NCBI GenBank assembly: GCA_964569655.1
Contig: CAZMTN010000001.1
Coordinates: 139,395-203,394 of the forward strand
From: an uncultured Candidatus Saccharibacteria bacterium
GTDB lineage: Bacteria; Patescibacteriota; Minisyncoccia; Phycocordibacterales; Phycocordibacteraceae
Length of the DNA stretch: 64,000 nucleotides
Direction: 5' to 3'
Positions 6,241 to 60,581 of the stretch are shown here, piece after piece. A program made the position numbers and the translations under genes. Under the pieces are notes generated by a model. That model saw only the letters and a program-made list of their open reading frames with translations. It was not told where the DNA came from and made no database searches. Numbering within the stretch: position 1 is the stretch's first letter; every line of letters starts with the position of its first letter.

Positions 6241-6246
6241 TGATGC

Positions 6247-6402
6247 ATGTCACAGGACCACCTGATCAAGCTCAAGTCGACCAAGTCGGCCCACGTCTAT
6301 TTCACGCGCAAGAACCGCAAGAAGGTTGAGCGCAAGATCGAGCTCATGAAGTTCGATCCGACGCTCAGGAAGCGCGTCGCCTACAAGGAAGCGAAGAAAT
6401 AA
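6247..6402 (+). CDS. rpmG: 50S ribosomal protein L33
   Basis: 51-aa ORF MSQDHLIKLKSTKSAHVYFTRKNRKKVERKIELMKFDPTLRKRVAYKEAKK, matching the L33 pattern (...TKNKR..P.KLELKKFDP..RKHV.YKE.K). Below the ORF-track length cutoff. Confidence 0.85.
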   Translation: MSQDHLIKLKSTKSAHVYFTRKNRKKVERKIELMKFDPTLRKRVAYKEAKK

Positions 6403-6407
6403 GCACG

Positions 6408-6437
6408 AGCCGCCCCCAAGGGCGGCTTTCGCTTTTC
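6408..6437 (+). terminator. Rho-independent terminator: stem AGCCGCCC, loop CCAA, stem GGGCGGCT, then TTCGCTTTTCC
   Basis: Perfect 8-bp GC stem plus T-tract directly after rpmG. Confidence 0.5.
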
Positions 6438-6489
6438 CACTATCCTCATGGTGCGCCCACGCGGGCGCGCTATACTTGAGAAACCAATT

Positions 6490-7722
6490 ATGAATAGCTT
6501 GAACCTTATGAATACTTCATCACTTGCGCGCATCCTCGCCCTCGGCGTACTCGCCCTCGGCATGGCGCCGTTCGCATCCGCCCAGACGGCCTGCGATTTT
6601 ACCCGGGACCTCGAAATCGGCGTGGATGGCGAAGACGTCCGCTGCCTCCAGAAGTTCCTCAACGGCTCCGGATTCACCATCGCCGCAGAGGGCGTCGGCT
6701 CTCCGGGCAACGAGACCAGCCTCTTCCGCGAGAAGACCAAGGAGGCCGTGATGAAGTGGCAGGCCGCTAACGGCCTTCCGTCGACCGGATACTTCGGACC
6801 GGCGTCGCGCGCGAAGTATGGTGGCGGCGCAAGCACGGCAACGCCGGGCATTACCGGCAATACCGGTGCCGTGGGCGGCAGCTCTACCGTCCAGGCACAG
6901 GTAGATGCGCTCCTCCAGAAGGTGAAGGATCTCCAGGCGCAGAAGTCCAATACCACGACGACCGTTACCGGCTCCCAGAAGGACGCGCAGAAGGCGATCA
7001 TCGAGGCTATCGATGCGATCGAGGAGGCAGATGAGGAAATCGAGGACGCCGTCGACGACGCGCTCCCGATCGGGAACGCCGAGGATGAGATGGACGATGC
7101 GCGCCAAGACCTTTTCGAAGCTGTTAAGGCCTACTTCGTCGGCAACTACACCAAGGCCATCAGCGCGGCCGACGATGCCTATGACAACGCCGAGGACGCG
7201 TTCGAGAAGGCGGGCGGGGAGTCCCGCGAAGACAAGGTCGAGGACTTCATCGACGACGTCGAGGAGCAGATCGAAAATGCTTGGGAGAAAATCGAGGAAG
7301 CAGATGATGACGGTGACGACGTCGATGAGTCTGAGGAACTGCTCGAGGAGGCAGAGGATACGCTCGATGAGGCAAAAGATGCTCTCGATGACGATGACCT
7401 TGATACCGCAGAAGAGCTTGCCGAGGAGGCTGAGGAGCTCGTGGACGATGCGCTCGACGCGATCGGCAACGGCGGAGACGAGGAGGAAGATGCGGAGAAC
7501 GCCCTCGAGGACGCCGAGGATGCGATTAACGACGCATGGGATGCCGTTGAGGAGGCTGAGGACGACGGCGACGATACCGGCGATGCCGAGGACCTTCTCG
7601 AAGAAGCGGAGGACCTGCTCGCAGATGCCGAAGATGCGTTCGATGACGAAGACTGGGACGAGGTGATGGATCTCGCGGACGAGATTGAGGACCTCGTAGA
7701 CGACGCTCTCGACGAGTTCTAG
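6490..7722 (+). CDS. Secreted protein: signal peptide, PG_binding_1-like peptidoglycan-binding domain, and a ~250-aa D/E-rich tandem-repeat tail
   Basis: Signal peptide MNSLNLMNTSSLARILALGVLALGMAPFASAQ. PG-binding motif LEIGVDGEDVRCLQKFLNG...KWQAANGLPSTGYFGP. The tail is almost pure Asp/Glu/Ala with ~62-aa repeats (ENAWEKIEEADDDGDD...LVDDALDAI and NDAWDAVEEAEDDGDD...LVDDALDEF). Start 6490 preferred over the ORF-track 6448. Confidence 0.7.
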   Translation: MNSLNLMNTSSLARILALGVLALGMAPFASAQTACDFTRDLEIGVDGEDVRCLQKFLNGSGFTIAAEGVGSPGNETSLFREKTKEAVMKWQAANGLPSTGYFGPASRAKYGGGASTATPGITGNTGAVGGSSTVQAQVDALLQKVKDLQAQKSNTTTTVTGSQKDAQKAIIEAIDAIEEADEEIEDAVDDALPIGNAEDEMDDARQDLFEAVKAYFVGNYTKAISAADDAYDNAEDAFEKAGGESREDKVEDFIDDVEEQIENAWEKIEEADDDGDDVDESEELLEEAEDTLDEAKDALDDDDLDTAEELAEEAEELVDDALDAIGNGGDEEEDAENALEDAEDAINDAWDAVEEAEDDGDDTGDAEDLLEEAEDLLADAEDAFDDEDWDEVMDLADEIEDLVDDALDEF

Positions 7723-7730
7723 AGGAAGCG

Positions 7731-7762
7731 AAAACCGCCCGGAAGGGCGGTTTTCATTTTGG
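7731..7762 (+). terminator. Rho-independent terminator: AAAACCGCCC, loop GGAA, GGGCGGTTTT, then CATTTTGGGTT
   Basis: Perfect 10-bp stem and U-tract right after the stop at 7722. Confidence 0.55.
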
Positions 7763-7847
7763 GTTGCCGCGGTGAGCGTGAGCATATATAGTCCACTCGG
7801 ATGTGCGGCCTGGATGATCCAGACCGATAACAGAGAAAGGTACGATT

Positions 7848-8483
7848 ATGGAGAGTTTTCCGACACCGTTCGAGTTATTCGGACAATACCGCCCTCGCTT
7901 CGAGGTCATCAGTCTCTTCGCGGTCGGATGGGGAGGATACTCCTCTCAGGACAAGGGCAAATCTCAGCAGCGCATGTACCTGAGGATGCGGCGAAACGGC
8001 CACGAACTCCGCGGCTACACCAGCTACGGTCTCCCGTATGTCGACTATGCCGAATCCGGGCTGCCGTTTGAGTTCACCTACGACCGGTCCCAGGAGAAGA
8101 CGATACATGAACAGCTCGACGAGAAGGCGATGAGCATGGTAGACGAGCATCTGCGGGGACGCACCGTGCTGATCTCGCCGGCGCAACCGTTCACTGAAGC
8201 GTCCTTCCAGCAGCCCGACTTCGATTGCAACAGGGCTAGGCGGGACGTGCTGTTCGAGTTGCAAGGCGACCCTATCCCGGGCCTCAGTCTTCCTAAGCCC
8301 GGCATGTTCACAGGGATCTATGCGCCATGGCAATTCTTCGTTCCCGGCGATTCGCCCGAGGGGAAGGCAATTGTTGCGGCGTACAAGCATCACGCGGCTG
8401 ACAGCCAGGATGTCAGTAAGATCTCTGATTCGAAGGAAGCTGCAAGATCCTCACTCGTGCAGGCCCTTGCTGCAGTCCAGTAG
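7848..8483 (+). CDS. Hypothetical protein (211 aa)
   Basis: Clean ORF between two terminators; no recognised motifs. Confidence 0.45.
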   Translation: MESFPTPFELFGQYRPRFEVISLFAVGWGGYSSQDKGKSQQRMYLRMRRNGHELRGYTSYGLPYVDYAESGLPFEFTYDRSQEKTIHEQLDEKAMSMVDEHLRGRTVLISPAQPFTEASFQQPDFDCNRARRDVLFELQGDPIPGLSLPKPGMFTGIYAPWQFFVPGDSPEGKAIVAAYKHHAADSQDVSKISDSKEAARSSLVQALAAVQ

Positions 8484-21576: not shown

Positions 21577-22608
21577 ATGGCGCACCAGTCTTTCTACCGC
21601 ACGCACCGCCCCCACTCGTTCAAGGAGGTCTCCGGCCAGCCCCAGGTCACTGAAGCGCTTTCGGAGCAGGTGAAGAACAAGAAGGTGGGGCATGCCTACC
21701 TTTTCGCCGGCTCCCGCGGCCTCGGGAAGACGTCGGTCGCGCGCATCTTCGCCGCGGATCTTGGCACGACCGAGCGCGACCTCTACGAGATCGATGCCGC
21801 GAGCAATAACAGCGTAGACGACATCCGCAGCCTTTCAGAGAACGTCTATACGCTCCCGTTCGAGTCCCCGTATAAGGTCTATATTCTCGACGAGGCGCAC
21901 ATGCTCTCGAAGAGCGCTTGGAACGCCTTCCTGAAGACGCTTGAGGAGCCGCCAGCGCACGCAATCTTCATCCTCGCCACGACCGAGCTCTCGAAGGTCC
22001 CGGAGACGGTCCAGTCCCGCTGCCAGGTATTCGTGTTCAAGAAGCCTGGGCGTTCGGAGCTCGCTAAGGTGGTTGCTGGCGTGGGGAAGAAGGAGGGGTA
22101 TGCGGTAGAACCCGCTGCGGCCGATCTCATCGCCCTCCTTGCAGAGGGCTCATACCGTGATGCGCTTTCCGTGCTCGAGCGCGTCTGTGCGGCATCTTCG
22201 GATAACAAGATTACGCGCGAGGAAGCGGAGAAGGCTACCGGAGCGCCCAAGCATGAGCTGGTCTCGAAGCTTGCTGCAGCGCTCTCGGAAGGGAATGCGG
22301 AGGCTGCACTCGTCGTTATCCGGAGGGCGGCTGATTCGAGCGTCGATATGCCGCTCTTTCTCTCGCTCATCCTCGACCATATCCGAGCGGTGTTGCTTGT
22401 TCGCCATGCGCCTGAACTCAGGGCGGAATTCAAGGAGGAGCTCGGCGAGATGTATGCGGATGTAGAGAAAGTGGCGGGAGACAAGGCGTCGAAGCTGAAC
22501 CATCGCATACTCCAATCCTTCCTCGAAGCTTCCGCGCGCATGCGCTACGCATCGGTCCCGTCCCTCCCGCTCGAGCTTGCCGTACTCTCGCTTTTCGGAC
22601 AGGATTAA
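21577..22608 (+). CDS. dnaX: DNA polymerase III gamma/tau subunit, short form (343 aa)
   Basis: Walker A GSRGLGKTS, DEAH-like YILDEAHML, sensor/SRC region TVQSRCQVFVF; lacks the long tau C-terminus. TATAAT lies 8 nt upstream of the ATG. Confidence 0.85.
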   Translation: MAHQSFYRTHRPHSFKEVSGQPQVTEALSEQVKNKKVGHAYLFAGSRGLGKTSVARIFAADLGTTERDLYEIDAASNNSVDDIRSLSENVYTLPFESPYKVYILDEAHMLSKSAWNAFLKTLEEPPAHAIFILATTELSKVPETVQSRCQVFVFKKPGRSELAKVVAGVGKKEGYAVEPAAADLIALLAEGSYRDALSVLERVCAASSDNKITREEAEKATGAPKHELVSKLAAALSEGNAEAALVVIRRAADSSVDMPLFLSLILDHIRAVLLVRHAPELRAEFKEELGEMYADVEKVAGDKASKLNHRILQSFLEASARMRYASVPSLPLELAVLSLFGQD

Positions 22609-22621
22609 CCCGTGCGCCCCT

Positions 22622-22695
22622 TGGGGGGTCGTCTAATGGTAGGACAGCGGCCTTTGAAGCCGTGAATCTTGGTTCGATCCCAAGCCCCCCAGCCA
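22622..22695 (+). tRNA. tRNA-Gln (anticodon TTG), U1-A72 acceptor pair, CCA encoded
   Basis: TGGGGGGTCGTCTAATGGTAGGACAGCGGCCTTTGAAGCCGTGAATCTTGGTTCGATCCCAAGCCCCCCAGCCA: anticodon loop CTTTGAA, T-arm CTTGG-TTCGATC-CCAAG, discriminator G; resembles the E. coli tRNA-Gln architecture. Confidence 0.85.
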
Positions 22696-22711
22696 GTGTT
22701 ATTGTTTCTAT

Positions 22712-23485
22712 ATGGAAATTGAGAGGCATAAAAAACAGTTTGGCAATCAGGCTGCAAACTATACAAAATATAGACGACCGTATACTCAAAAGCTTTATGA
22801 GCTGCTGTTTTCATTTTCTCCAACTGCAAAAAAGAAAATACTCGACATTGCCTGCGGCACAGGGAAATCTACTGAGCCGCTCTTTCTGGAGGGTGCAGAG
22901 GTTATAGGAATCGATCATGATCCATTAATGATTGAAGAGGCGCAGAAACAAGCATCTCTTAAATCTCTGCCAATTACATACCTTGTGGCTGACGTCGAGC
23001 ATCTTCCATTCGAAGATAAAAGTTTTGATATTGCTACTGTTGGCACTGCCTTTCATTGGTTCGTTAACGAGCCGTCTATAACTGAAATAAAGAGAGTGTT
23101 GAAAGGGAATGGTCTACTATTCGTGTTCTGGACTCTGACTACCAAAGATGTACCGGAAGAGGATTCCATCCCTGGAGATTTCCTACGATCCTTCAATTGG
23201 GACAAGGTACCTTCTGAACTTCGCAATCTCGAACACATCTCGTCTTTCCTAATAGATAATGGTTTTAAGAATGTATCTACAGCAAGGATTCCGTTTACTC
23301 ATAACGATACAGTTGAGGATCAGGTTGGGCTCATGAAAACTGCATCGTGCTACGAACTGCTCACGAAGGAAGATCAAGATCGCTTTGATAGGGAATTGTC
23401 TGTGATTCTGACCACTAAACTAGGAGATCGGCCTTACTTTACCTATGAGGAGGAAATCCAGGTCTGCTATGGGTTTAAGGGATAG
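22712..23485 (+). CDS. Class I SAM-dependent methyltransferase
   Basis: Motif I ILDIACGTGKST, later acidic motifs (IGIDHD, VADVEHLPFEDKSFD); AT-rich codon usage; TGtTATTGT -10 lies 6 nt before the ATG. Confidence 0.75.
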   Translation: MEIERHKKQFGNQAANYTKYRRPYTQKLYELLFSFSPTAKKKILDIACGTGKSTEPLFLEGAEVIGIDHDPLMIEEAQKQASLKSLPITYLVADVEHLPFEDKSFDIATVGTAFHWFVNEPSITEIKRVLKGNGLLFVFWTLTTKDVPEEDSIPGDFLRSFNWDKVPSELRNLEHISSFLIDNGFKNVSTARIPFTHNDTVEDQVGLMKTASCYELLTKEDQDRFDRELSVILTTKLGDRPYFTYEEEIQVCYGFKG

Positions 23486-23632
23486 AAAAGTTCTAACGTC
23501 GTTCAATACCCGCAGCCCGATAATGTAGAATGCGCTTATGCAACTCGAGTACGTATACGATCGAGAAAAAGATATTGAATGCCTTCTAACAAAAGGTAAG
23601 AGTTCCCCCACGGTTCATTTGTGAGGGCGGTG

Positions 23633-23941
23633 TTAGCTTCCAGCTTGCATGCCAGCAAGGAACGCAGAGGTGAGCAGGCGCTCCAACTCGGTACGGCTGG
23701 CCGGCGTCATTGAGTTGGAAAAGTCCATCATAGCAACAAGCATGGCCAACTCCTTATTGCCGCGATCGCTTTTGGCATTGTCACGACTGAAGCGACTCAG
23801 CTTCTTTGGCTCATGCGAGAAAATTTGGACGACTTTCTGCCCATCCAATTTGTCGCCGACTTTCACATCATCACCCACCCTTCGAATGCGAGGCGGGGAA
23901 CTGATTTTTCCACTTTTCGTTACTGCGAAATTGAGCTTCAT
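23633..23941 (-). CDS. Hypothetical protein (102 aa) in the AT-rich islet
   Basis: ORF of ordinary composition; the opposite-strand ORF 23649..23960 is the alternative; the strand call is weak. Confidence 0.2.
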   Translation of the reverse strand: MKLNFAVTKSGKISSPPRIRRVGDDVKVGDKLDGQKVVQIFSHEPKKLSRFSRDNAKSDRGNKELAMLVAMMDFSNSMTPASRTELERLLTSAFLAGMQAGS

Positions 23942-24189
23942 CTTCTTCCACTCGCTATAATTTCTGAAAATAGAATACTATATAAATATATCTATGTCAA
24001 TATCAAAGTTCCAACTTCGTCCCAGATGCCCAGCAAATTGACAATAATGCCTATATTAGGTATTGTTTTTTCGGAAGATTCTTAACTTCTTAATTCGCCG
24101 TAGCAAAAACATGCTCATGTTTGGGCGCATTTTTGCTACGGCGAAACGCATATCGCGCAAGCTTTGTTAGCACAGAGGAGAAAACTGCA

Positions 24190-25002
24190 ATGTCGAGCGA
24201 CAAGCAGAAGACCTTTGACGGCCAGACCGCCCAGTTTTTGGGAATCGTCGGGCAAAACATGCCACGTCTTACCAGTGAGGTAATGCAGAGATGGGTTGAA
24301 AATCCTAAAGCGCTTCAAAAGGTGCTCAGTTGGGGTCTTCAATCGGACCCCAAGGCTGCAACATCAATGGTGCAATACGAGATTGGCAACTGCATCGAGC
24401 GCAGCACGACGAAAGTCAGCGATCCGGATGGTGGGAATGTGCTCTACGACATCAACACCGAAAGTCTACCGCTGCCATACAAGCAGGCAATCTATCTGGG
24501 ACAAGGCGTTAACCCATTCAAGGCCATGCGTGTCGAAGACCTTGATTTCCGGCTTGGCGTTGAATATGCGCCAGGCAAAGTGAATCGCGCACGATGCTTG
24601 GCCCTTCGTCCGTATCTCGTGATCGAGGCGATGGATGGTGTCGGCGAAGGTTGTCACATACCGATCCGTTCTATTGACTACTGGGCCGACCACGCCAAGG
24701 CACCAATCGTACCGAAGAGCGGTGGTGCGCTGACCATATTGGAAGCGGACAAAATCAACATGTCCGAACACTTGTGGGACCTTGAGATCGGGTATGTAAA
24801 TGGGGCATTGGAATATATCTCCGATCGCTTTACTTTTGGCTTGTCGATTGAGGACCAGCAATACGGATGGTTGGTTCATCTTCATTGGCTCACAGATGGC
24901 GGCGCGGCCCTTAATACTTTCCGTTTCCAGTTGCGGAAAGAGTTCCTAGTCAACGAATACAGGGAGGCGAAATTGGAGCCTCCAACTGAATTGCTGAAGT
25001 AG
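24190..25002 (+). CDS. Hypothetical protein (270 aa)
   Basis: Start taken at MSSDKQKTF, which has a GGAGAAAA Shine-Dalgarno; the ORF-track start at 24121 lacks one. A terminator follows. Confidence 0.5.
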   Translation: MSSDKQKTFDGQTAQFLGIVGQNMPRLTSEVMQRWVENPKALQKVLSWGLQSDPKAATSMVQYEIGNCIERSTTKVSDPDGGNVLYDINTESLPLPYKQAIYLGQGVNPFKAMRVEDLDFRLGVEYAPGKVNRARCLALRPYLVIEAMDGVGEGCHIPIRSIDYWADHAKAPIVPKSGGALTILEADKINMSEHLWDLEIGYVNGALEYISDRFTFGLSIEDQQYGWLVHLHWLTDGGAALNTFRFQLRKEFLVNEYREAKLEPPTELLK

Positions 25003-25009
25003 ACAATCT

Positions 25010-25046
25010 GGGCGGTCACCTTAACGGGTGGCCGCCTATTTTTTTG
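25010..25046 (+). terminator. Rho-independent terminator (GGCGGTCACC ... GGTGGCCGCC, then TATTTTTTT)
   Basis: 10-bp stem with one mismatch, then a 7-T run. Confidence 0.5.
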
Positions 25047-25095
25047 CTCGAAAAGGTTCCAACTTCATACCAGACACCCAGCCAGCAGGTATACT

Positions 25096-25431
25096 TTGCA
25101 TATGCTAGACAAGGCACGACAGATTACTTTGAACGCACTTCCTGTTGCGCTCATGATTGGTCTGATACCGCTGGTCCTGAATGATTACTACCTGGCGGGG
25201 ATATACATCCTGATCGCAATCGCTGCCCTCGCCATTAGGCGGGAGCGGAATGATCTTGTCGCGTACCTGTTCGGACTCATCATCATTACCATCTCGGAGT
25301 ATTTCTTCATCAGCACGGGAGTCGAGACGTTTGCCCGCAACAGCCTCTTCGGCGTCATGCCGCTATGGCTCCCGTTCCTCTGGGCCTATGCTTTCGTAGT
25401 CATAAAGCGATCGCTCCGCATCCTCAGCTAG
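25096..25431 (+). CDS. Hypothetical integral membrane protein (3-4 TM helices)
   Basis: Hydrophobic segments LNALPVALMIGLIPLVL, AGIYILIAIAALAI, LVAYLFGLIIITI, LFGVMPLWLPFLWAYAFVVI. Confidence 0.45.
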   Translation: MHMLDKARQITLNALPVALMIGLIPLVLNDYYLAGIYILIAIAALAIRRERNDLVAYLFGLIIITISEYFFISTGVETFARNSLFGVMPLWLPFLWAYAFVVIKRSLRILS

Positions 25432-25468
25432 AGAGGTTCGAACCCCACGCGATGCTAAGCTACTTACT

Positions 25469-26044
25469 ATGAAATGGATACTGATCACCGCAGCCGCTGC
25501 TATCGCTGTCATCGCAGGCTTCTTCGCCTTGAATGCGTACATATACGAGGAGAAGCAGGCCACAGCAGTCAAGGATTATAAGGATGCAGAGTATCTGATC
25601 GAGGGGCAGCGCATACGCCTTTCGGACGGGATAAGCGAGAGCGAGCCGGTGCCAGGATCTGCCGCAAGGATCGTGACCCGCTATTTCGGCAATGAGCTCA
25701 CGGCCGATATCAACAGCGATGGAAGGGAGGACGTGGTGTTCCTCCTGACTCAGGAGCAGGGAGGCACGGGCGTTTTCTACTACGTAGTCGCGGCACTCAA
25801 TACAGAGCGAGGATATATCGGATCGGACGGGTACTTCCTTGGCGATCGCATAGCGCCCCAGTCTATCGACCTAAGCCAGAACCCGCGGCACGTAGACGTG
25901 ATCGTGGTGAATTACGCTGACCGCAACGCTGATGAACCGATGACCGCAGCCCCATCCGTAGGAAAGAGCGTATACCTGAAGATCGACCCCGCATTCATGC
26001 AGTGGGCGATAGTCGAGCCTGATTTCGAGGGAGAATCAAGGTAG
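25469..26044 (+). CDS. Hypothetical secreted/membrane-anchored protein
   Basis: N-terminal signal-anchor MKWILITAAAAIAVIAGFFAL; no recognised motifs. Confidence 0.45.
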   Translation: MKWILITAAAAIAVIAGFFALNAYIYEEKQATAVKDYKDAEYLIEGQRIRLSDGISESEPVPGSAARIVTRYFGNELTADINSDGREDVVFLLTQEQGGTGVFYYVVAALNTERGYIGSDGYFLGDRIAPQSIDLSQNPRHVDVIVVNYADRNADEPMTAAPSVGKSVYLKIDPAFMQWAIVEPDFEGESR

Positions 26045-51001: not shown

Positions 51002-51074
51002 GGGCCGTTAGCTCAGTTGGTAGAGCATCTCATTTGCAATGAGAGGGTCGCAGGTTCGAATCCTGTACGGTCCA
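51002..51074 (+). tRNA. tRNA-Ala (anticodon TGC)
   Basis: GGGCCGTTAGCTCAGTTGGTAGAGCATCTCATTTGCAATGAGAGGGTCGCAGGTTCGAATCCTGTACGGTCCA folds with the G3-U70-type acceptor, anticodon loop TTTGCAA and T-loop TTCGAAT. Confidence 0.85.
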
Positions 51075-52551
51075 CCCCGGTAGACAGTTCAGTCGAAAAT
51101 ACTGATTCCGTCGCAAAGATAAAGGAAGTTTCAGAAGTTTTAAATTCTTTCCCGTCAAAGACGACGCCAGAAGGAAATTGGAACTTTTGAAGCTTAGTCT
51201 TCGTTTCGTGCCTAGCCTGCAGCCAGACCTTCCCTGGCGCAGAAATATAGTCACGTGCAAGCGTGAGGGCTCCTGCAACGTCTACTCGCCCATGCTTCAA
51301 GGAGACCTGCTTTTCATACAGGGCAAAGGTTTCTTTCTCCATACGAGCAAGCTGGCTCTTAAGAACGTCATCGCTGACTACACCACTGAGGTTCTTGTCG
51401 ATAAGAACGGCCTGACGGTCCTGAAGCCCAGTAAGGCGAACCTCAATTTCTTCTAGGGCTTTCTGCTGGCCTTTAGTAGCTTCAGCAAACTTCTTACGCA
51501 CCAAACTCTCAAGCTTGTTCAGATGTTCCTTGCTGGGTGCAAAGCGGTTCATAAAGTCCGCAAAGTCCTGGTGCACGATCTCGCTACGCATATCGCTTTT
51601 CTTGACTCCTACGAAGCGATAGTAGGGATACTTACCTTTAGCGAAACTACCGGTAAGCTTCTTTCCTTCAGAGTTTTCAATGAAACGACGCAAAGGGAAG
51701 TCCGGATTATCACGCTTATAAACTGAACTCTTCTTACCCTTCTTGAGAAGTACGCACTGTACCTGATTAAACAACTCCACAGAGACGATCGGTTCAAAGC
51801 TGCCCTTATTTGTCTCACCAAATTTCTCGATAACCCCCATATATACCTTGTTCGTCAGCATCTTGTAGAAGTACGATCGTGCCGGGGACTTCCCATTTTT
51901 AAGACACAGTCCGCGATCGCTCATCATCTTCCAAACGCCGTCAATTGGGTGCAGTGAGGTAGCTACAGTCTCAAAAGACTGAAGAACTAGGGCACTCATA
52001 TCTCCGAGCTCAAGGTTCGGCTTCCCACCTACTACGCCATTCCTAAAGCCAACAGGTGCAGGCCAGACATAACGACCTTCCCGCACTGCATCCTTCATAC
52101 CGCCTCCACAGCGTTCACTACGCATGTCGTTATCAAACTGCGCTACGTTAGCGAGAGTGTTCTCAATAAACTTACCTGCAGCTGTATCGTCAAATTGCTC
52201 CGTTGCAGAAAGAAGTTCAATCTTATACCGCTTAAGCAATGCCCGGATTGTTGCGTGATCTTCTGTACTACGTGCAAGGCGATCAACCTTGTACACAAGC
52301 ACAGCACTGATATTGTTTTTCCTGATCGTGCAGAACTTGAGCATCTCTTGCAATTGAGTCCGGTTGGCGGTCTTTGCGCTCTCACCGGCTTCTACGAATA
52401 CGTGAATCACATCAAAGCCCTTTCGTACCGCAAACTCACGACAAATGCGCTCTTGAGAAACCAGACTATTTCCCTCATCAGCCTGGGCACTGGTTGAGAC
52501 ACGGACGTAAACTACGGCACGCGGCTTACTACTCCCATGAACATTGTTCAT
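51013..52551 (-). CDS. Large serine recombinase (resolvase-type catalytic domain, recombinase domain and Zn-ribbon/coiled-coil region)
   Basis: N-terminal AVVYVRVSTSAQ (catalytic Ser), VLVYKVDRLARS, recombinase-domain and C-terminal features; 512 aa. The last ~20 codons are read from the antisense of tRNA-Ala. Confidence 0.8.
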   Translation of the reverse strand: MNNVHGSSKPRAVVYVRVSTSAQADEGNSLVSQERICREFAVRKGFDVIHVFVEAGESAKTANRTQLQEMLKFCTIRKNNISAVLVYKVDRLARSTEDHATIRALLKRYKIELLSATEQFDDTAAGKFIENTLANVAQFDNDMRSERCGGGMKDAVREGRYVWPAPVGFRNGVVGGKPNLELGDMSALVLQSFETVATSLHPIDGVWKMMSDRGLCLKNGKSPARSYFYKMLTNKVYMGVIEKFGETNKGSFEPIVSVELFNQVQCVLLKKGKKSSVYKRDNPDFPLRRFIENSEGKKLTGSFAKGKYPYYRFVGVKKSDMRSEIVHQDFADFMNRFAPSKEHLNKLESLVRKKFAEATKGQQKALEEIEVRLTGLQDRQAVLIDKNLSGVVSDDVLKSQLARMEKETFALYEKQVSLKHGRVDVAGALTLARDYISAPGKVWLQARHETKTKLQKFQFPSGVVFDGKEFKTSETSFIFATESVFSTELSTGVDRTGFEPATLSLQMRCSTN

Positions 52552-53875: not shown

Positions 53876-54169
53876 CGAGCTTCCTCACCCATACGGGGGT
53901 GGTTTCCTTGGGTCCTCCGCAAACCGAATAGGAGGCTCGGGGAGAAAGGCCATGAAGTGAAATCACCAGGAAATGGCTTATTTCCTTATTCTTTAGTATC
54001 GCCTAGAGAGAAAGGCTTGACCTCGCCAACGGGAGGCATATACTTCAACTACATTTCGTACGGTTTCGGTTCGAAGGTATCAAAATACCTTGAAAGTACA
54101 GGCCATTTCACGAAGTGAGCAAACGGCGGAAGTGAAGCTGAATTATTTACTAAGTAGCATACGACATAT

Positions 54170-54736
54170 ATGAATCCAGATGAATTGAAAGAGCGCATTC
54201 GTCTTGCAGAAGAAGCGGTTGCCGGCATGACCGATGAGAACTTGAAACGAATCGCCTTTGAAACGTTACTCACACATTCTCTCGGGGGAGAGCAGTCATC
54301 GAACACCAAAAAGAGCAGCACCCGTTCTTCTAAGAAAAAGTCGGGTGCAGCACGACCGAAGTCCGCTAAACCGACAACGGAAAAGAAAGTTAGCTCAATC
54401 GAACTTGATGTTGAGCAGTTGAAGAGCCTGAAGAGCTACTACGATGATCATGCTCCTTCCGGTACTGAAGAATCGGTATTCACTCTCGCCTTCTTCATCC
54501 ATGAGGTGCTCAAGCAGAAGGTCTTCCACGAAGCGGATGTATTTGGTCTCTACACCAGCTTGATGCCTCTTAAGCCTACGCAGAAGCCCCCAGTATTAAC
54601 TCTCGATACAGTAAAGAGGGCAATGACATGGCTTGTTGCACCTAGTCGCCGTAAGCAGTGGCTCAAGTTCGTTGACGGTGGTTACGAGATTAGCTCGCAC
54701 GGTATCCACCACATGACTTATAAGGATGAAGTGTAA
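54170..54736 (+). CDS. Hypothetical protein, paralog 1: N-terminal helix, Ser/Lys-rich disordered linker, C-terminal winged-helix-like domain
   Basis: C-terminal FTLAFFIHEVLKQ...LTLDTVKRAMTWLV...KFVDGGYEISSHG has the helix-helix-helix-wing pattern (K.GWI ... GGY.IS..G) of wHTH domains. Confidence 0.45.
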   Translation: MNPDELKERIRLAEEAVAGMTDENLKRIAFETLLTHSLGGEQSSNTKKSSTRSSKKKSGAARPKSAKPTTEKKVSSIELDVEQLKSLKSYYDDHAPSGTEESVFTLAFFIHEVLKQKVFHEADVFGLYTSLMPLKPTQKPPVLTLDTVKRAMTWLVAPSRRKQWLKFVDGGYEISSHGIHHMTYKDEV

Positions 54737-54753
54737 CTCTAAGCTCAACAACC

Positions 54754-55338
54754 ATGGCGAAACTTACGGTTGATCTAAAGAACGGTTTGCTCGAAGTGGA
54801 AGGAGACGAATCCTTCGTAAAGGAGGTCTACGACGACTACAAGGAAGCTCTCGCAATGCTTACGGCACAGGTCCTCACGGCAAAGGAGGTGCACACACCT
54901 GAACTTGGAACAGGTTCATCAAAGAAAACTGGCTCAACTAATCCAAAGCCTACCGGCGCACAGACACACTCAAAAGGTGTAACACGTGAGGAGCCTACAT
55001 TTGTTCCCGACCTGAATCTTAATCCGGGAACCAAGCCTTCTCTCAAAGAAATCTACGCAAAGCTTTTGCCTGGAAAATCTACTGCAATGGAGAAGAACGT
55101 TGTGTTCGTTCACTATCTTCAGCGCACACTTGGGATTACTGGTATCGGTCTCAACCATATCTACACCTGCTACAAGGAAGTGGGAGAGAAGGTTCCTGTC
55201 GCGTTGGCGCAGAGCTTGAGGGATACTGTAAAAAAGGGTGCATGGATCGACATCACCGATGTGACGAACATCCATATGACGGTTCGAGGCGATAACTTCG
55301 TCGAGCACGAGTTGCCTCATGGATCCGAGGATAAATAA
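54754..55338 (+). CDS. Hypothetical protein, paralog 2 of 54170..54736 (same architecture)
   Basis: Linker GSSKKTGSTNPKPTG; C-terminal VFVHYLQRTLG...LAQSLRDTVKKGAWIDITDV...VRGDNF parallels paralog 1. Confidence 0.45.
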   Translation: MAKLTVDLKNGLLEVEGDESFVKEVYDDYKEALAMLTAQVLTAKEVHTPELGTGSSKKTGSTNPKPTGAQTHSKGVTREEPTFVPDLNLNPGTKPSLKEIYAKLLPGKSTAMEKNVVFVHYLQRTLGITGIGLNHIYTCYKEVGEKVPVALAQSLRDTVKKGAWIDITDVTNIHMTVRGDNFVEHELPHGSEDK

Positions 55339-55352
55339 GACTCGCAATTCAT

Positions 55353-56108
55353 ATGACACGTGAAGAACTGGACCTATTCGCTAGCCGCTTTGACGGTTTC
55401 GCTGCACTCTCGGCAGTGAAGCAAATCGACTACTTGGCCTACTACTTACTTGCTCAAAAGGGGAAGGAAAGCATTACCGCAGGCGATCTCGAAGAGTGCT
55501 TTAAACTTCTCGACCTGCGACCGTATGCGCGCATGTCGGTACACCTTTCGGAATCTGCCTCAAAGAAGGATGGTCGATTCATTAAGCACTCTAAGGGGTA
55601 CAGGTTGGAGCGCGCCGCGCTAGAAGAGATTCGTGCAATCGTTGACGCGGAGCCAGAGCGAGAGAAGGTATCTGTTCATCTCACTGACCTTGTACCGAAG
55701 ATCAGTGAGGCGCAGGAACGGGTTTTTCTTGAAGAGGCTATTCGCAGTTTCCGCGTAAAGGCATTTCGTGCAGCAGTCGTTATGACTTGGATTCTCACAA
55801 TGGAGCACCTGCAGAGGTTCACTTACGGGAATAAGCTGAGCGAGTTCAATGCGGCCATCGCTGCGCACCCAGATAACAAGCGCATGAAAGCAATCACTGC
55901 GTATGATGACTTCGCTGACCTAAAGGAATCAAGGGTCATTGAGCTCATGCGGAGCGCTGGCGTTATCTCTCCCGACGTAAGAAGGATTCTCGATGAGAAA
56001 CTCGGTATTCGAAACAGTGCGGGCCATCCATCCGGAGTTATTCTGTCTCCCCATAAGGCCACGGAGTTCATCCTCGACCTTGTTGAGAACGTTATCCTGA
56101 AGTACTAG
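55353..56108 (+). CDS. Hypothetical protein: N-terminal winged-helix-like domain related to the two upstream paralogs, plus a C-terminal helical domain with an Rx4H (HEPN-like) motif
   Basis: N-terminal DYLAYYLLAQKGKESITAGDLEECFKLL...KKDGRFIKHSKGYRLERAA (wing K.GRFI...GY.L). C-terminal EKLGIRNSAGHPSGV carries R-x4-H inside a predicted all-helical domain, as in HEPN RNases. Terminator hairpin follows. Confidence 0.4.
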   Translation: MTREELDLFASRFDGFAALSAVKQIDYLAYYLLAQKGKESITAGDLEECFKLLDLRPYARMSVHLSESASKKDGRFIKHSKGYRLERAALEEIRAIVDAEPEREKVSVHLTDLVPKISEAQERVFLEEAIRSFRVKAFRAAVVMTWILTMEHLQRFTYGNKLSEFNAAIAAHPDNKRMKAITAYDDFADLKESRVIELMRSAGVISPDVRRILDEKLGIRNSAGHPSGVILSPHKATEFILDLVENVILKY

Positions 56109-56200
56109 TTGGCTGAACACGCAGAATTGTCTCCAACGACTGAATCTCCTTGCAAAAGGAGTTCCAAAACTCCATCCCAAGGTCCACATTCGTTCACTTG

Positions 56201-56226
56201 AAGGCACGAAAGTGCCTTTTTGTGTA
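56201..56226 (+). terminator. Terminator hairpin AAGGCAC-GAAA-GTGCCTT plus TTTGTGTAT
   Basis: 7-bp stem with GNRA loop and T-rich tail after the 55353..56108 gene. Confidence 0.45.
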
Positions 56227-56481
56227 TAGTTTCCAACGCTTTTCGCAGGTTCTAATATTTCTGGTGGACAGTTTAGCGAATCTACCCCGTCTCGTAGGAT
56301 TTCTATAGGCTTCTCGACTAGGAACGAGAGGTGGCCCTGGTCGAATATGTGCTCGGTACCGAGGGCTGCAAGGATGGCACGTCTCTTTTCCAGGTCGGGT
56401 ATTAAGGCCAGTGGCCTCCAGCCGATAGTATCAAAATATCTAAAGTTTGGATATTGACTTCTTAGATAGACCATTTAGTAT

Positions 56482-56703
56482 ATGAAGAAGTCAATCCATA
56501 CAAAGGAGTACGCGGTCTTTGTCGAGAGATTGAAGACAGCGCGCCTTGAAGCGGGTCTGACGCAGGTGCAGGTGGCCAAGAAATTGAAACGGCCACAGTC
56601 CCATGTTTCAAATGTAGAGTCAGGGCAACAGAGGCTAGATGTTATTGAACTCCAACGTTTTGCGAAGATTTACAGGAAGGACATCAACTATTTTCTAAAA
56701 TAA
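56482..56703 (+). CDS. XRE-family (Cro/C1-type) helix-turn-helix transcriptional regulator
   Basis: 73 aa; LTQVQVAKKLKRPQSHVSNVESGQQ is a canonical HTH_3; first gene of a tightly packed 9-gene + strand run. Confidence 0.7.
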   Translation: MKKSIHTKEYAVFVERLKTARLEAGLTQVQVAKKLKRPQSHVSNVESGQQRLDVIELQRFAKIYRKDINYFLK

Positions 56704-56707
56704 TTCC

Positions 56708-57229
56708 ATGGTTGAGAACTTGAAAAATGTTGGCTGGACTATTCTGGGAATAGGTTTTTTCTTGCTTCTCATTTTGATAGCAGCTTTGATGCTTAACGGC
56801 GCAGTTTGGGTTGGTGAGCACGTAATTGGCTGGCTTTTTAGTGCCGCATGGATAGTATTCGCCATCAACCTTTTTATCCTTCTACCTCTCGGGCTGTTTA
56901 GGAAAACTGGCGTGTTTGGCGGAATTGCCATGTACTACTCATCGTTTGTATTCGGCTTAACGCTCTGGTTCCTAGGACTCTTGCTTACTTATTTTGCATG
57001 GGGATTTCTTGGAGTCATCGCTGGTCTTATCCTTGGCGGAGTTGGGGTTGTTCCAGTAGCAATGCTGGCCATGCTGTTCGACGGAGAATTCTTTACACTC
57101 GTTGTTCTTCTAGTCCTGACTGCTCTTACGTTCGGCACTAAATTCCTAGGTGTCGTTTTAGCGATGAGAGCAGAGGAAAAAACGAATCAGCTCCACACAG
57201 AAAGGCTGACAACTGAGACTCAGATATGA
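56708..57229 (+). CDS. Hypothetical polytopic membrane protein (173 aa, ~5 TM)
   Basis: Hydrophobic helices throughout; 4 nt after the XRE stop. Confidence 0.45.
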   Translation: MVENLKNVGWTILGIGFFLLLILIAALMLNGAVWVGEHVIGWLFSAAWIVFAINLFILLPLGLFRKTGVFGGIAMYYSSFVFGLTLWFLGLLLTYFAWGFLGVIAGLILGGVGVVPVAMLAMLFDGEFFTLVVLLVLTALTFGTKFLGVVLAMRAEEKTNQLHTERLTTETQI

Positions 57230-57531
57230 CCTACCTCAAACCACTCCTGATTGTCGCGGGAATCATGCTTCTCCTCGCTATCCCTCCCATGTGGCCGTAT
57301 GTCTACTACCAACTCATGCGTATAGTCGTATGTATTGCGGCGGCGTATGGAGCATACACAGCTTTTCAAACAGAGCGTACTGGTTGGGTATGGGTACTTG
57401 GCGCAGTAGCCATCCTTTTTAACCCAATCGCTCCTATCCATCTCGATAAGGAGACGTGGGTTGTGCCCGACATCATTGGGGCAATCATCATGTTCGTGGC
57501 AGCGGTAAAATTGAAGCATCATGGAAAATAA
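57226..57531 (+). CDS. Hypothetical membrane protein (101 aa, 3 TM)
   Basis: Overlaps the upstream stop by 4 nt. Confidence 0.45.
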   Translation: MTYLKPLLIVAGIMLLLAIPPMWPYVYYQLMRIVVCIAAAYGAYTAFQTERTGWVWVLGAVAILFNPIAPIHLDKETWVVPDIIGAIIMFVAAVKLKHHGK

Positions 57532-58114
57532 AGGAAGCATCATTTGGTGGGTCATCATTCTGGCGGTACTTGCGGCTATCGTGTACTTCAACTTCTTTGA
57601 CAAAGATTCGAAAGAACAAGATTCATCGGAAGCGGTTACGGAAGAAGTCTCTGAAGGTAGCTTGATAGCCGACTCTCTAGCAGAAAAATATGGCGCTACG
57701 GTAATAGGCAGAGAAAGTCTCTCGTTTACCATTCAGGCGCAAGATCAGTTGTTGAGCGGTAAGCCAGTGGTGTTCGATGCTTATCTTGATGACGTATACC
57801 GTCGTGATGATAAGACCTACGTGCGCTTCCAGTCATATGACGAAACTGACTATATCCTCGAACTAGAATGCGACCCACAAATGGTCGAGGATAAAGTGCT
57901 CTCGCAGACGGATACCACGGACGATTGGCTTTTCTGGCTCTATAACGAGTATGTCGTTGTTGCAAACATAACCGAGGTATCGAAGCCAGTTATTGCACTT
58001 AATGCAGTAGCGGGCTACGACGAAGGAGATGCAGAAATAGAAGTTGAAACCAGCTCAGTCTTCAGCGCAAAAGGAACGTGCGTTGATATGGAGCATGTGG
58101 TTATAGGCGATTAA
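57521..58114 (+). CDS. Hypothetical single-pass membrane protein with acidic extracytoplasmic domain (197 aa)
   Basis: TM IIWWVIILAVLAAIVYF; overlaps the upstream gene by 11 nt. Confidence 0.45.
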   Translation: MENKGSIIWWVIILAVLAAIVYFNFFDKDSKEQDSSEAVTEEVSEGSLIADSLAEKYGATVIGRESLSFTIQAQDQLLSGKPVVFDAYLDDVYRRDDKTYVRFQSYDETDYILELECDPQMVEDKVLSQTDTTDDWLFWLYNEYVVVANITEVSKPVIALNAVAGYDEGDAEIEVETSSVFSAKGTCVDMEHVVIGD

Positions 58115-58116
58115 CC

Positions 58117-58320
58117 ATGAATACCAAATTCACAAAAATCTTGGTCATAGTTGCGGTTGCGGCTCTTGCGCTTGGTTCTTTAACCTACTTCACTCGGACG
58201 GTATTCGACATCGGCTGTGCGAATACAGAATTGGTGCAGGGCAACAAATGGAAACGCCATTTCCTCGGCATGAATTGCTGGTACTGGGAGGGCAATATCG
58301 ATCTCCAAGCGGAACTATAG
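58117..58320 (+). CDS. Small membrane-anchored protein (67 aa) with two Cys and a Trp-rich tail
   Basis: TM ILVIVAVAALALGSLTYF; ...CANTELVQGNKWKRHFLGMNCWYWEG. Confidence 0.35.
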   Translation: MNTKFTKILVIVAVAALALGSLTYFTRTVFDIGCANTELVQGNKWKRHFLGMNCWYWEGNIDLQAEL

Positions 58321-58324
58321 AGAT

Positions 58325-58843
58325 ATGAATAAAACAACTGCAACAACCAAAGTGCTCGTAGCCGCTGTCGTTATTCTGGCCGTAGTAGCACTTTGGCAGT
58401 TCATGGAGAAGAAAGGTCTTGAGTACGAACTCGTGCTACAACAGTCAATTCCTCACGTTGACCTAACCAATACTCAGTTCGTAGACGGAGGACGTTTCTA
58501 TGCATATATAACAGGTTTCGTAGTCTTCAAAAATGAGGAAGACCAGCCGAAAGATATGCGCCAGTTCTATATGATTGAGCCGACAGCAAGTCCTAATGTT
58601 TATACCCTCAAGGAGATTTTTGAGATGAACTTGCTACCGCCCAAAGTATTTGACCCTGTCATGCTTGATGTCGCACAAGAAACAAGTAGCATGCTCGTAC
58701 TCGTGGATGAGAGTGGAAATACATGGACAATAAACAAACTCACGAAAGAGGTGCAAATGCTAGACTCAACTGGCGACGCAACCTACCTCATCACAAGCAA
58801 CATAGAGTACCAGGACTTTATGCAAAACTTCCTTACTAGGTAA
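58325..58843 (+). CDS. Hypothetical membrane-anchored protein (172 aa)
   Basis: Signal-anchor VLVAAVVILAVVALWQF. Confidence 0.45.
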   Translation: MNKTTATTKVLVAAVVILAVVALWQFMEKKGLEYELVLQQSIPHVDLTNTQFVDGGRFYAYITGFVVFKNEEDQPKDMRQFYMIEPTASPNVYTLKEIFEMNLLPPKVFDPVMLDVAQETSSMLVLVDESGNTWTINKLTKEVQMLDSTGDATYLITSNIEYQDFMQNFLTR

Positions 58844-58848
58844 CGAAA

Positions 58849-59391
58849 GTGCGTATGAGGCTATATAGATTCAGTCCAGTCAAAAATCAAGCGACCCTCA
58901 TTGAAGCCATTCAACACATTCATGCTGAGTGCTTCAGACTCTGTAAGGAATCTGTGGGCGAATATCTACCTGTAGCAGGAAATGTAGGTTTCTTCTGTCA
59001 TTACAATGATGAGTACGACGTTCTTACTGCGCTTCGTGGGCAATTGACTGAATCGTCTGACAATATCAATCAAAAATACTTTCGTCTCTATGAGCCCATC
59101 GTCATTCCTGCTATAGACGATATTCCTGAGACAATCTATACCCATCTTTACATTCGTAAGCCCGATATTTATCGAGCACAGGTAGGCGATATCGATTTTG
59201 TAATGGAGCCAGAGCGGTATGCGGAAATGAAGAAGCGTTTAGAGAGCGGCGAAGTCATCTCTGGTGCTCGTATTTTCCCACGAGGCGATTTGGATATGAT
59301 TGAACTCTATAATCCTGATGTTGATGCACTAGGTTATATCAGCGTGAATGAGATGACTGAGAAAGTCCGGATTAAGACCAATTTTCAATAA
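58849..59391 (+). CDS. Hypothetical soluble protein (180 aa)
   Basis: No recognised motifs; part of the operon. Confidence 0.45.
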   Translation: MRMRLYRFSPVKNQATLIEAIQHIHAECFRLCKESVGEYLPVAGNVGFFCHYNDEYDVLTALRGQLTESSDNINQKYFRLYEPIVIPAIDDIPETIYTHLYIRKPDIYRAQVGDIDFVMEPERYAEMKKRLESGEVISGARIFPRGDLDMIELYNPDVDALGYISVNEMTEKVRIKTNFQ

Positions 59392-59392
59392 C

Positions 59393-59839
59393 ATGGACTA
59401 CCTGAAACGAGCAGTCGAGTTAGCAAAAATTTCACTTGAAGCTGGTGAGTTTCCTGCCGGCGCAGTGCTTGTTAGTAAGAGCGGAAAAGTCTATGAGAGC
59501 AAACCATCAGTGCCTTATAACCACGGCGAAACGATGGTCATAGATATGGCTATCGAATCAGAAGGGGAGCCACTCGTCGTTGGGGCAACTATATATGCTT
59601 CCATGCAGCCTTGCCTCATGTGTTCCTCAAAGATGTACTGGGCTGGTATTGAAAATGCCCACTTTGTGATTCCGAAGAAGAATGTTCGAGCGGATTACGC
59701 TTATGAAAATGAGTTGGATACGACGGCAGTGGCATCAAATTTCTTCAAACCAATTACAATGACCCACCATTCTGAACTACTAGATGAGGCGATGAGTGCA
59801 TATGTAGCATGGGTAAATAAGATTGAAGACCATGGATAG
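59393..59839 (+). CDS. CDA-fold nucleoside/nucleotide deaminase (TadA/guanine-deaminase-like)
   Basis: Zn-binding H(G)E ... PCxxC: NHGETMVIDMA and MQPCLMCSSKM; N-terminal AGEFPAGAVLV typical of the family. Confidence 0.65.
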   Translation: MDYLKRAVELAKISLEAGEFPAGAVLVSKSGKVYESKPSVPYNHGETMVIDMAIESEGEPLVVGATIYASMQPCLMCSSKMYWAGIENAHFVIPKKNVRADYAYENELDTTAVASNFFKPITMTHHSELLDEAMSAYVAWVNKIEDHG

Positions 59840-60581
59840 TGTTTCAATCCCTAATTCCAGGGGTCGCAAGATAGCAGCGGTCATTCATTATTCACAGGGA
59901 AATAAAAGGCTCGCTATTCTTTGTCCTGGCTATTTAGATACTAAGGACTACGCTCATCTTGTAGACCTTGCGAACAAATTTGCAGAGCGTGGATACACCA
60001 CTGTACGCTTCGACCCTTCTGGAACCTGGGAAAGTGAAGGTCCGATATCTGAGTATCTAACTTCTCAGTATCTTGATGATATTAAGAGTGTTTTGGAATA
60101 TATGCTTGCTAAGGATTCATATACTCAAGTCCTACTTGGTGGTCACAGTCGAGGTGGTCAGGTTTCGCTACTGTATGCTGCTCGCGACCCACGTATCACG
60201 GAAGTAGTAGGTATCATGCCTTCGCATGGGCCAGTAGAAGGTTCTCGTCGTACTGAATGGGAGGCTACGGGAGTAAAGGAGTCTGATAGAGATATTCCTG
60301 GGAGTGAAGAGCGACGACAGTTTGCTGTTCCATTTCAGCATGTGCTTGATCGCGACCAATTTGATGCACTGGGAGATATGCCGAACATTCACGTGCCAGT
60401 ATATTTATTTGCTGGAGAATTAGATGATTTGGTGCCTCCTGAAGAAGTCCAAGAACTTTTTGATGCTGCTAACGAACCTAAGAAGTATCTTGTGCTCAAG
60501 GGCATAGACCATGACTATCGCTTAAATCCTCTACAAGTGGAGGAGGTGAACAATCGTATTATTCAAACGATTGAACGTTAA
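59823..60581 (+). CDS. Alpha/beta-hydrolase fold protein
   Basis: Nucleophile elbow GGHSRGG, later acid/His region (DDLVPPEE ... IDHDY); overlaps the deaminase stop by ~17 nt. Confidence 0.65.
   Translation: MKTMDSVSIPNSRGRKIAAVIHYSQGNKRLAILCPGYLDTKDYAHLVDLANKFAERGYTTVRFDPSGTWESEGPISEYLTSQYLDDIKSVLEYMLAKDSYTQVLLGGHSRGGQVSLLYAARDPRITEVVGIMPSHGPVEGSRRTEWEATGVKESDRDIPGSEERRQFAVPFQHVLDRDQFDALGDMPNIHVPVYLFAGELDDLVPPEEVQELFDAANEPKKYLVLKGIDHDYRLNPLQVEEVNNRIIQTIER

Follow-up and report, generated by a model that had tools for sequence, protein, structure and literature searches.

What do three small consecutive genes in the genome of an uncultured Candidatus Saccharibacteria bacterium encode, and do their products form a single functional unit? 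The genes, here called genes 1, 2, and 3 (54170-56108), lie in a stretch of 64,000 nucleotides (assembly GCA_964569655.1, contig CAZMTN010000001.1, positions 139,395 to 203,394 of the forward strand), which we refer to as the window. A preliminary description, made from the letters of the stretch and its open reading frames (ORFs), had proposed that the three proteins share a winged-helix-like module, that the third adds a HEPN domain, and that together they form a defense or addiction cassette on a mobile island. HEPN ribonucleases (RNases) are central effectors of CRISPR types III and VI, of toxin–antitoxin systems, and of many abortive infection (Abi) systems, and the superfamily achieves metal-independent RNase activity through a composite site formed in a dimer. 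Our analysis indicates that gene 3 encodes a predicted winged-helix/HEPN RNase and that a gene for a partner protein, homologous to the winged-helix part of gene 3, precedes genes of this family across many phyla. We consider it probable, though well short of certain, that the three genes make up a self-contained conflict module that moves horizontally and is of the toxin–antitoxin or abortive infection kind.

Gene 3 encodes a winged helix joined to a HEPN domain

The AlphaFold model of gene 3, based on an alignment of 43 homologs, had a mean predicted local distance difference test (pLDDT) score of 94. Residues 1–100 are modeled as helices followed by a two-strand wing, and residues 108–251 as a helical bundle with the four-helix, up-down arrangement of the HEPN fold. 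The motif GIRNSAGHP that had been noticed earlier is indeed present. Of the residues that it contributes, R220 and N221 were conserved in all 79 family members compared and H225 in 78; outside it, R139 and D242 were conserved in all 79 and E128 in 78. Gene 3 thus has the motif expected of HEPN proteins (Rx4-6H, often beginning with RN) and a helix-1 residue that is polar or acidic; R-N-x3-H together with a helix-1 Glu is the catalytic signature of HEPN RNases (Anantharaman 2013, PMC3710099). The fold and the near-invariant motif bear out the HEPN domain with R-x4-H of the preliminary description, and gene 3 is, judged from its model and its alignments, a member of the HEPN superfamily.

Single-sequence searches with gene 3 returned only weak matches, to PD-T7-3 (E 0.0012–0.0027) and phrog_27609 (E 3.4e-6), and nothing meaningful in the PDB. 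The HEPN families suggested earlier for checking (Abi_C, RiboL-PSP-HEPN, and HepT) gave no match in the Pfam scans. The precomputed database annotation of the exact gene 3 protein is PF27235 ("AF_1680"), as it is for 119 of 120 homologs among the matches listed; gene 3 had no match in our local Pfam copy, which PF27235 postdates. Nothing relevant on PF27235, AF_1680, or "Dandelion" came up in the literature searches.

Profile comparisons were more informative about relatives. The gene 3 family profile matched the PDB entries "Dandelion-hepn" (E 3.6e-4) and "Dandelion" (E 2e-3), and the PADLOC model of PD-T7-3, PDLC04108, matched 49 of 56 HEPN domains of the family (best E 4.6e-8), the match of gene 3 itself spanning model positions 8–44 only. 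PD-T7-3 has been renamed DARNA and is an abortive infection HEPN tRNA anticodon nuclease activated by single-stranded DNA (ssDNA) (bioRxiv 10.64898/2026.02.22.705581). DARNA and the Dandelion entries (9wxf, 9wx2) probably belong to one family, to judge from their size, layout, and 12 chains. DUF4145 (PF13643, HEPN clan) weakly matched 20 of the 43 gene 3 relatives, with a best E value of 0.0061; the Pfam scan gave no match for gene 3 itself, and the curated threshold was not reached. By sequence comparison, the HEPN domain of gene 3 is detectably homologous to that of DARNA, and its detectable relatives are DARNA/PD-T7-3 and, weakly, DUF4145. In several HEPN homologs, the winged helix is replaced by unrelated N-terminal regions that have no Pfam annotation.

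The three proteins share a winged-helix module

Pairwise BLASTP was blind to any relationship among the three proteins (E 0.14 for genes 1 and 2, 0.61 for genes 1 and 3, and 2.0 for genes 2 and 3). We therefore relied on family profiles built from database homologs and from genome loci. The loci came from a pattern scan of 185,579 species-representative genomes, in which 101 stretches were confirmed to contain a relative; the best 80 were kept. Loci are cited below by L numbers.

With hhalign, the C-terminal domain of the gene 2 family matched the N-terminal domain of the gene 3 family at 97.1% (E 7e-11, 91 columns), against 0.8% for the control comparison with the HEPN half of gene 3. After removal of its low-complexity linker, the C-terminal domain of the gene 1 family matched the gene 2 domain at 96.3% (E 1.7e-9, 94 columns). 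The direct comparison of genes 1 and 3 was weak (15%, E 0.0017), in an unchanged register, and so homology between these two is transitive. A converged module profile, iterated on all ORFs of the loci, recovered gene 1 (2e-12), gene 2 (2e-27), and gene 3 (1e-21). It gave 180 matches among 4039 ORFs, 174 of them within recognized cassettes; the remaining six were partner genes of the L088–L090 operons, whose last gene is not AF_1680.

The helix order in the gene 2 module is that of the gene 3 model. A three-helix bundle with a β-hairpin wing is seen at the N-terminus of gene 3, and it is assigned to genes 1 and 2 by homology. At the level of profiles, then, one homologous domain is shared, C-terminal in genes 1 and 2 and N-terminal in gene 3. 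This confirms the common module proposed at the outset, and the alignments agree with the motifs that had been picked by hand. Genes 1 and 2 had also been called clear tandem paralogs; their C-terminal domains are related, but only distantly, and their N-terminal parts are unrelated (hhalign 2.9%).

Genes 1 and 2 encode two types of partner protein

Genes 1 and 2 represent two types of partner, g1 and g2. In gene 1, residues 1–37 look helical from the sequence and residues 38–76 are a Ser/Lys-rich linker that leads into the module. Gene 2 begins with a strongly conserved element, KLxIDLxxGxLEVEGxExFV, modeled with low confidence as a β-hairpin plus helix, and continues with a disordered linker rich in Ser, Thr, Pro, and Lys (residues 41–92). 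The Ser/Lys/Thr/Pro-rich linkers reported for both proteins are real. Neither protein had a match in Pfam-A, NCBIfam, PHROGs, or PADLOC. The g2 type is the commonest partner family, and the partner profile matched 66 of 74 genes immediately upstream of the HEPN gene.

Two genes form the conserved operon

A partner gene detectable by profile lay directly upstream of the HEPN gene, on the same strand, in 64 of the 75 loci with enough upstream DNA, in more than 10 phyla. Read by eye, nine upstream proteins that were missed or marginal by profile also have an N-terminal element, followed by a linker and a C-terminus that resembles a winged helix. The modal spacing between partner and HEPN gene was a 4-nt overlap (range −17 to +26 nt, with one outlier). 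Because the partner is almost always directly upstream of the HEPN gene, the core of the system is a two-gene operon, and its layout is that of two small, co-directional, tightly coupled genes with the putative regulator first.

Homologs thus co-localize in other genomes, a check that the preliminary description had asked for. Of the three outcomes that it had named as refuting, none was observed. Its three-gene cassette holds in that the genes stand together; the conserved unit has two genes, and the three-gene form is a recurrent variant with two partner types.

Either type, g1 or g2, occurs elsewhere as the only partner of a HEPN effector. The g1 homologs P0131 and P0133 are sole partners directly upstream of AF_1680 genes in L083–L086, and the gene order of L084 resembles that of the window: tRNA, large serine recombinase, g1-type partner, and HEPN gene. 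This solitary occurrence of each type would be expected if the window's three-gene form were a recombination scar of two cassettes in which one effector was lost, leaving gene 1 or gene 2 as an orphan antitoxin that is either non-functional or confers "anti-addiction" immunity against a related toxin. The scar also finds support in the effectors, since gene 3 of the window shares 64–67% identity with effectors that have g1-type or short partners and only 44% with that of L091, whose partner is of the g2 type. Two loci with a close gene 2 relative were checked; of these, only L091 has an AF_1680 gene, the last gene of L088 being unrelated. The combination of a g1-type with a g2-type partner was found in no other locus examined. 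Even so, a scar seems doubtful to us, though a serious possibility. Genes 1 and 2 are intact and are separated by gaps of only 17 nt (genes 1 and 2) and 14 nt (genes 2 and 3) in one apparent operon. The partners of the window and L091 are 44% identical (gene 2), as are their effectors, which is compatible with co-inheritance. Moreover, tandem partner pairs are present not only in the window but also in L002, L004, L006, L010, L036, and L060, and L088–L090 have a four-gene operon with three partner-like genes. This recurrence in independent lineages suggests that multi-partner cassettes are functional variants.

In the four-gene operon of L088, the 195-aa protein belongs to the g2 type of partner and shares 44% identity with gene 2 of the window. 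The last protein (247 aa) is unrelated to gene 3 (hhalign 0.2%), has no Pfam match, and contains "RNNRDSAH" and a winged-helix-looking C-terminal tail. From these features, it may be a different HEPN-type effector served by the same partner set.

A short protein of 133–139 aa (...LAYxLLKKLLKxEG...GSGxNYEIP...) is encoded by the first gene of multi-partner cassettes in Patescibacteria (L002 7163-8753, L004, L006, and L088). The L002 and L088 copies, both read by eye, are 52% identical; those of L004 and L006 matched the profile of the partner C-terminal domain (E 2e-8 and 9e-5).

Comparison with known systems

We found the two-gene organization described neither in the 2013 HEPN survey (PMC3710099) nor in PADLOC v2 or the literature searched. 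We compared it with the nearest known systems.

In DARNA, ssDNA bound by a non-catalytic domain activates the HEPN site (bioRxiv 10.64898/2026.02.22.705581). Gene 3 resembles DARNA in its R-x4-H motif (R117/H122 in DARNA, R220/H225 in gene 3) and in having the HEPN domain joined to a non-catalytic domain that might bind nucleic acid. The differences are larger. DARNA has about 456 aa, with an N-terminal HEPN domain and a C-terminal Pds5-like helical domain of about 300 aa that senses ssDNA, and it is encoded by a single gene and forms a dodecamer. Gene 3 has 251 aa, with a winged helix of about 100 aa and a C-terminal HEPN domain, and it is accompanied by a separately encoded, conserved partner. 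Because of this domain order, the lack of a Pds5-like domain, and the presence of the partner, gene 3 is not a member of DARNA/PD-T7-3.

The best experimental precedent for the proposed role of the partner is Retron-Kva2 (type IX), in which a winged-helix protein covers a HEPN dimer and mitigates its toxicity (bioRxiv 10.64898/2026.07.14.738597). As in our cassette, a small winged-helix protein is encoded beside a HEPN nuclease. Unlike gene 3, whose motif is canonical, the HEPN protein of Retron-Kva2 has no Rx4-6H motif, and in the cassette the effector itself carries a winged-helix module homologous to that of its partner. None of the ORFs lying between the recombinase and gene 1 contained a reverse transcriptase (RT) domain, and the Rfam search gave no retron RNA; nor did RT families rank among the 25 commonest Pfam families in the genes flanking 78 loci. 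With no RT or noncoding RNA and with a canonical HEPN motif, the cassette is not a type IX retron.

RAZR (PD-T7-4) and Ishtar act by abortive infection or plasmid clearance and, like gene 3, consist of a divergent, DUF4145-type HEPN domain fused to a small domain for sensing or as an adaptor. In contrast to the cassette, they are single-gene systems with zinc-finger or β-rich domains. Gene 3 is not DUF4145 proper, because the matches of its family are weak (best E 0.006) and gene 3 itself has none. In HepT–MntA (type VII toxin–antitoxin), the antitoxin is the nucleotidyltransferase MntA, and in RnlA–RnlB it is RnlB, whereas the partner here is a winged-helix protein. Genes 1 and 2 had no nucleotidyltransferase match in Pfam, NCBIfam, or PADLOC, and the cassette is therefore not HepT–MntA. 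Roquin (ROQ winged helix plus HEPN, eukaryotic mRNA decay) and Csx1/Csm6 (CARF-HTH-HEPN, CRISPR type III signaling) differ in domain order and have no paralogous partner gene.

Distribution, neighbors, and mobility

A profile search of 1.84 billion representative proteins, grouped into clusters at 50% identity, returned 1844 clusters at E≤1e-3, of which 1044 had E≤1e-10 and 262 had E≤1e-30. The cassette loci belong to Patescibacteria, Pseudomonadota, Bacteroidota, Nitrospirota, Planctomycetota, Chloroflexota, and other phyla. A tRNA gene was found within 2.5 kb of the cassette in 21 of 84 loci. Of 72,556 plasmids, eight carried the family, and seven of these were Ralstonia megaplasmids. On plasmid pLM19O1, the one annotated record inspected, both cassette genes are annotated as "hypothetical protein," and their neighbors include genes for PHD/VapC, an integrase, and a DUF4238 protein, as well as IS66; where the protein-database list of homologs gives source names, which are few, these too read hypothetical. 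The distribution is patchy and island-linked. Carriage by phages was considered and rejected, with no hit in 50,697 INPHARED records and a single one among 2.9 million IMG/VR viral contigs.

No conserved third component was found among the flanking genes. Defense or mobile genes are sporadic neighbors and include TIR-NLR, SoFic, ShosA, a type I restriction–modification specificity subunit, EcoRII, putAbiC, and an IS110 transposase.

The mostly housekeeping neighbors, along with the DNA-binding type of fold in all three proteins and the position of the L017 cassette between rtcB and rtcA, would suit a regulatory pair with no role in conflict. The HEPN fold would then be a ligand-binding or regulatory domain, as in MtlR/YggD and the nucleotidyltransferase HEPN proteins, and the winged-helix proteins would regulate neighboring genes at the level of transcription or by binding RNA. 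This is the least probable of the explanations considered, and we regard it as very unlikely. There is no conserved neighbor gene to regulate, the family is spread patchily across phyla and linked to islands, and a proven defense RNase has a HEPN domain homologous to that of the family. Above all, R-N-x3-H and the helix-1 Glu, the catalytic signature of HEPN RNases, are strictly conserved, and conservation of the motif makes a purely regulatory, non-catalytic role unlikely.

In L017 (Methyloglobulus, 3736-8085), the genes on either side of the two-gene cassette encode an RNA ligase (rtcB) and an RNA 3'-phosphate cyclase (rtcA), all on one strand, and in L072 an RtcB-like gene lies upstream of the cassette. 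These RNA-repair neighbors fit an RNase role and are suggestive; as they concern one or two loci, they are too few to call.

Proposed mechanism

Under the conflict-module reading, gene 3 would be the effector. The HEPN domain would be expected to dimerize and cut RNA as other HEPN enzymes do, arresting growth; the target might reasonably be guessed to be tRNA, given that DARNA, the closest characterized relative, is an anticodon nuclease. The partners would provide the winged-helix module of the effector without the nuclease, extended by a disordered basic linker and an N-terminal element that varies. Co-translated with the effector, they would most likely serve as an antitoxin or regulator that keeps it inactive, either by binding it or by competing with its winged helix for one ligand. 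A cue from a phage, a plasmid, infection, or stress would remove the partners and release the effector. In the window, two partner types, g1 and g2, would be stacked before a single effector. The RNase activity, toxicity, neutralization by partners, and trigger in this scheme are all inferred.

The main rival to the toxin–antitoxin reading is a sensor–effector defense system with no antitoxin, in which the partner's winged helix would recognize phage nucleic acid or protein and recruit or activate the HEPN protein through the shared module. The homology of the HEPN domain to DARNA, which is activated by ssDNA on its non-catalytic domain, speaks for positive sensing, and so do the several partner types with variable N-terminal elements, as would be expected of sensing modules under diversifying pressure. 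Tandem partners (the window, L002, L004, L006, L010, L036, L060, and L088) would then broaden sensing. Set against these points, a partner gene that comes first and overlaps the start of the effector gene is the classic antitoxin–toxin layout, and the only experimental precedent for a winged-helix/HEPN pairing, Retron-Kva2, is one of inhibition and not activation. On balance, we find positive sensing unlikely.

We also put forward a more specific and speculative idea, to which we give a low probability. The partners may be paralogous "decoys" of the effector's winged helix that block productive HEPN dimerization, through mixed assemblies with the effector or competition for its nucleic-acid ligand, until a cue from a phage or mobile element titrates them. 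Such decoys would be interchangeable, could be stacked as in the window, and could be re-paired with unrelated effectors, as in L088.

Several results weigh against a toxin–antitoxin or abortive infection module. The partner was modeled poorly (pLDDT 57), and searching with that model yielded no meaningful fold match, which makes the partner's mode of action a guess. No significant operator repeat was found in a search upstream of the cassettes: the 7-bp inverted repeat of the window, the candidate operator, was not significant against shuffled sequences (p ~0.13), and upstream inverted repeats were barely enriched across the family (mean arm 5.9 vs. 5.3 nt), about 10% of the upstream regions having one at p≤0.05. 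Finally, the immediate flanking genes are highly variable in addition to being mostly housekeeping, and the enrichment of defense genes among them is anecdotal.

The best operator candidates of the family are in L011 and L044 (Nitrospirales), which have long inverted repeats about 45 nt 5' of the partner gene, with the common sequence ATCTATTGTCTAT and arms of 16 bp (L011) and 8 bp (L044).

The island and other features of the window

The ORF coordinates of the preliminary description match ours exactly, with all three genes on one strand (Table 1). They lie in a low-GC block (51–61 kb, about 47% GC vs. about 61% GC in the host region of the window), at the edge of which are a tRNA-Ala gene and a large serine recombinase. 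The mobile-island setting claimed for the genes is thereby supported. The C-terminal end of the recombinase ORF overlaps the tRNA-Ala gene on the opposite strand. A second copy of the tRNA-Ala 3' end was not found within the window, which is not unexpected because a serine integrase requires no long direct repeat.

Table 1. Positions of the features discussed in the text; coordinates refer to the window except in the last row
Feature	Position	Strand	Basis
Gene 1, 188 aa, g1-type partner	54170-54736	+	
Gene 1 winged-helix-like module, residues ~78–184	54401-54721	+	hhalign and converged profile
Gene 2, 194 aa, g2-type partner	54754-55338	+	
Gene 2 winged-helix-like module, residues 94–187	55033-55314	+	hhalign against the gene 3 N-terminal domain
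Gene 3, 251 aa, winged helix and HEPN, predicted RNase effector	55353-56108	+	
Gene 3 winged-helix domain, residues 1–100	55353-55652	+	
Gene 3 HEPN domain, residues 108–251	55674-56105	+	
R220-N-S-A-G-H225, predicted catalytic Rx4H motif	56010-56027	+	
tRNA-Ala, island anchor	51002-51076	+	
Large serine recombinase, island anchor	51013-52551	−	Resolvase and Recombinase domains
Promoter-like site TTGACC-16-TATACT, ~125 nt 5' of gene 1	54017-54044	+	
Inverted repeat AAGGTAT-N4-ATACCTT, 7 bp, between promoter-like site and gene 1	54074-54091	+	
Terminator-like hairpin followed by T-rich tail, ~90 nt past the gene 3 stop	56200-56219	+	
Antisense ORF, 181 aa, over the gene 3 3' end and downstream intergenic region	55929-56474	−	
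Xre-type helix–turn–helix protein	56482-56703	+	
Several small proteins, no family assigned	56708-59391	+	
DUF6804 protein, one of these small proteins	57226-57531	+	database annotation
Cytidine/deoxycytidylate-type deaminase	59393-59839	+	
α/β hydrolase	59823-60581	+	
Four-gene operon of L088, proteins of 133, 146, 195, and 247 aa	L088 420-2599 (also L089, L090)		

Genes 1–3 are bracketed by a promoter-like site and a terminator-like hairpin. The former is a possible promoter of the operon, on positional support alone, and the latter a possible operon end; promoter- and terminator-like sites were no commoner in the region than in shuffled sequence. Concerning an RNA antitoxin or a retron noncoding RNA, there were no tandem repeats and no Rfam family within or beside the operon. 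Rfam matches on the island were limited to one tRNA and a LOOT RNA about 1 kb upstream. The LOOT RNA (RF03000, 53038-53161, + strand) scored 53.3 bits against a gathering threshold of 46.4 (E 5.6e-8) and sits between the serine recombinase and the small ORFs that precede gene 1. As 14 related cassette loci lack it, it is probably a component of the island and not of the cassette.

A run of genes on the same strand follows the cassette (56482-60581). The 181-aa antisense ORF over the end of gene 3 is probably spurious, and in its place the public gene call has just a 63-aa ORF. Elsewhere in the window, a second low-GC patch (22600-26000, 44–54% GC) adjoins a tRNA-Gln gene (22622-22695) and contains a class I S-adenosylmethionine-dependent methyltransferase gene (22712-23485) and ORFs with no Pfam match; it may be another small island.

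Implications

Each HEPN RNase that has newly been dissected (DARNA, RAZR, and Retron-Kva2) showed a different activation logic. The cassette described here adds a new architecture, in which the putative regulator and the non-catalytic domain of the effector itself are paralogs; the chemistry of the effector and the general logic are familiar. Its distinctive trait is such a paralogous putative regulator, in types that can be swapped and stacked, which offers a testable hypothesis for how the nuclease is restrained. If the decoy idea is true, the cassette would be a modular sensing platform and not a fixed toxin–antitoxin pair, and it would represent a previously undescribed form of HEPN nuclease regulation. 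The cassette is compact and moderately widespread, and its hosts include, besides Patescibacteria, culturable Proteobacteria and Bacteroidota. If it is a defense system, it would supply a new family for defense-finder tools and a candidate immunity module for bacteria of the candidate phyla radiation (CPR), whose defense repertoire is poorly known.

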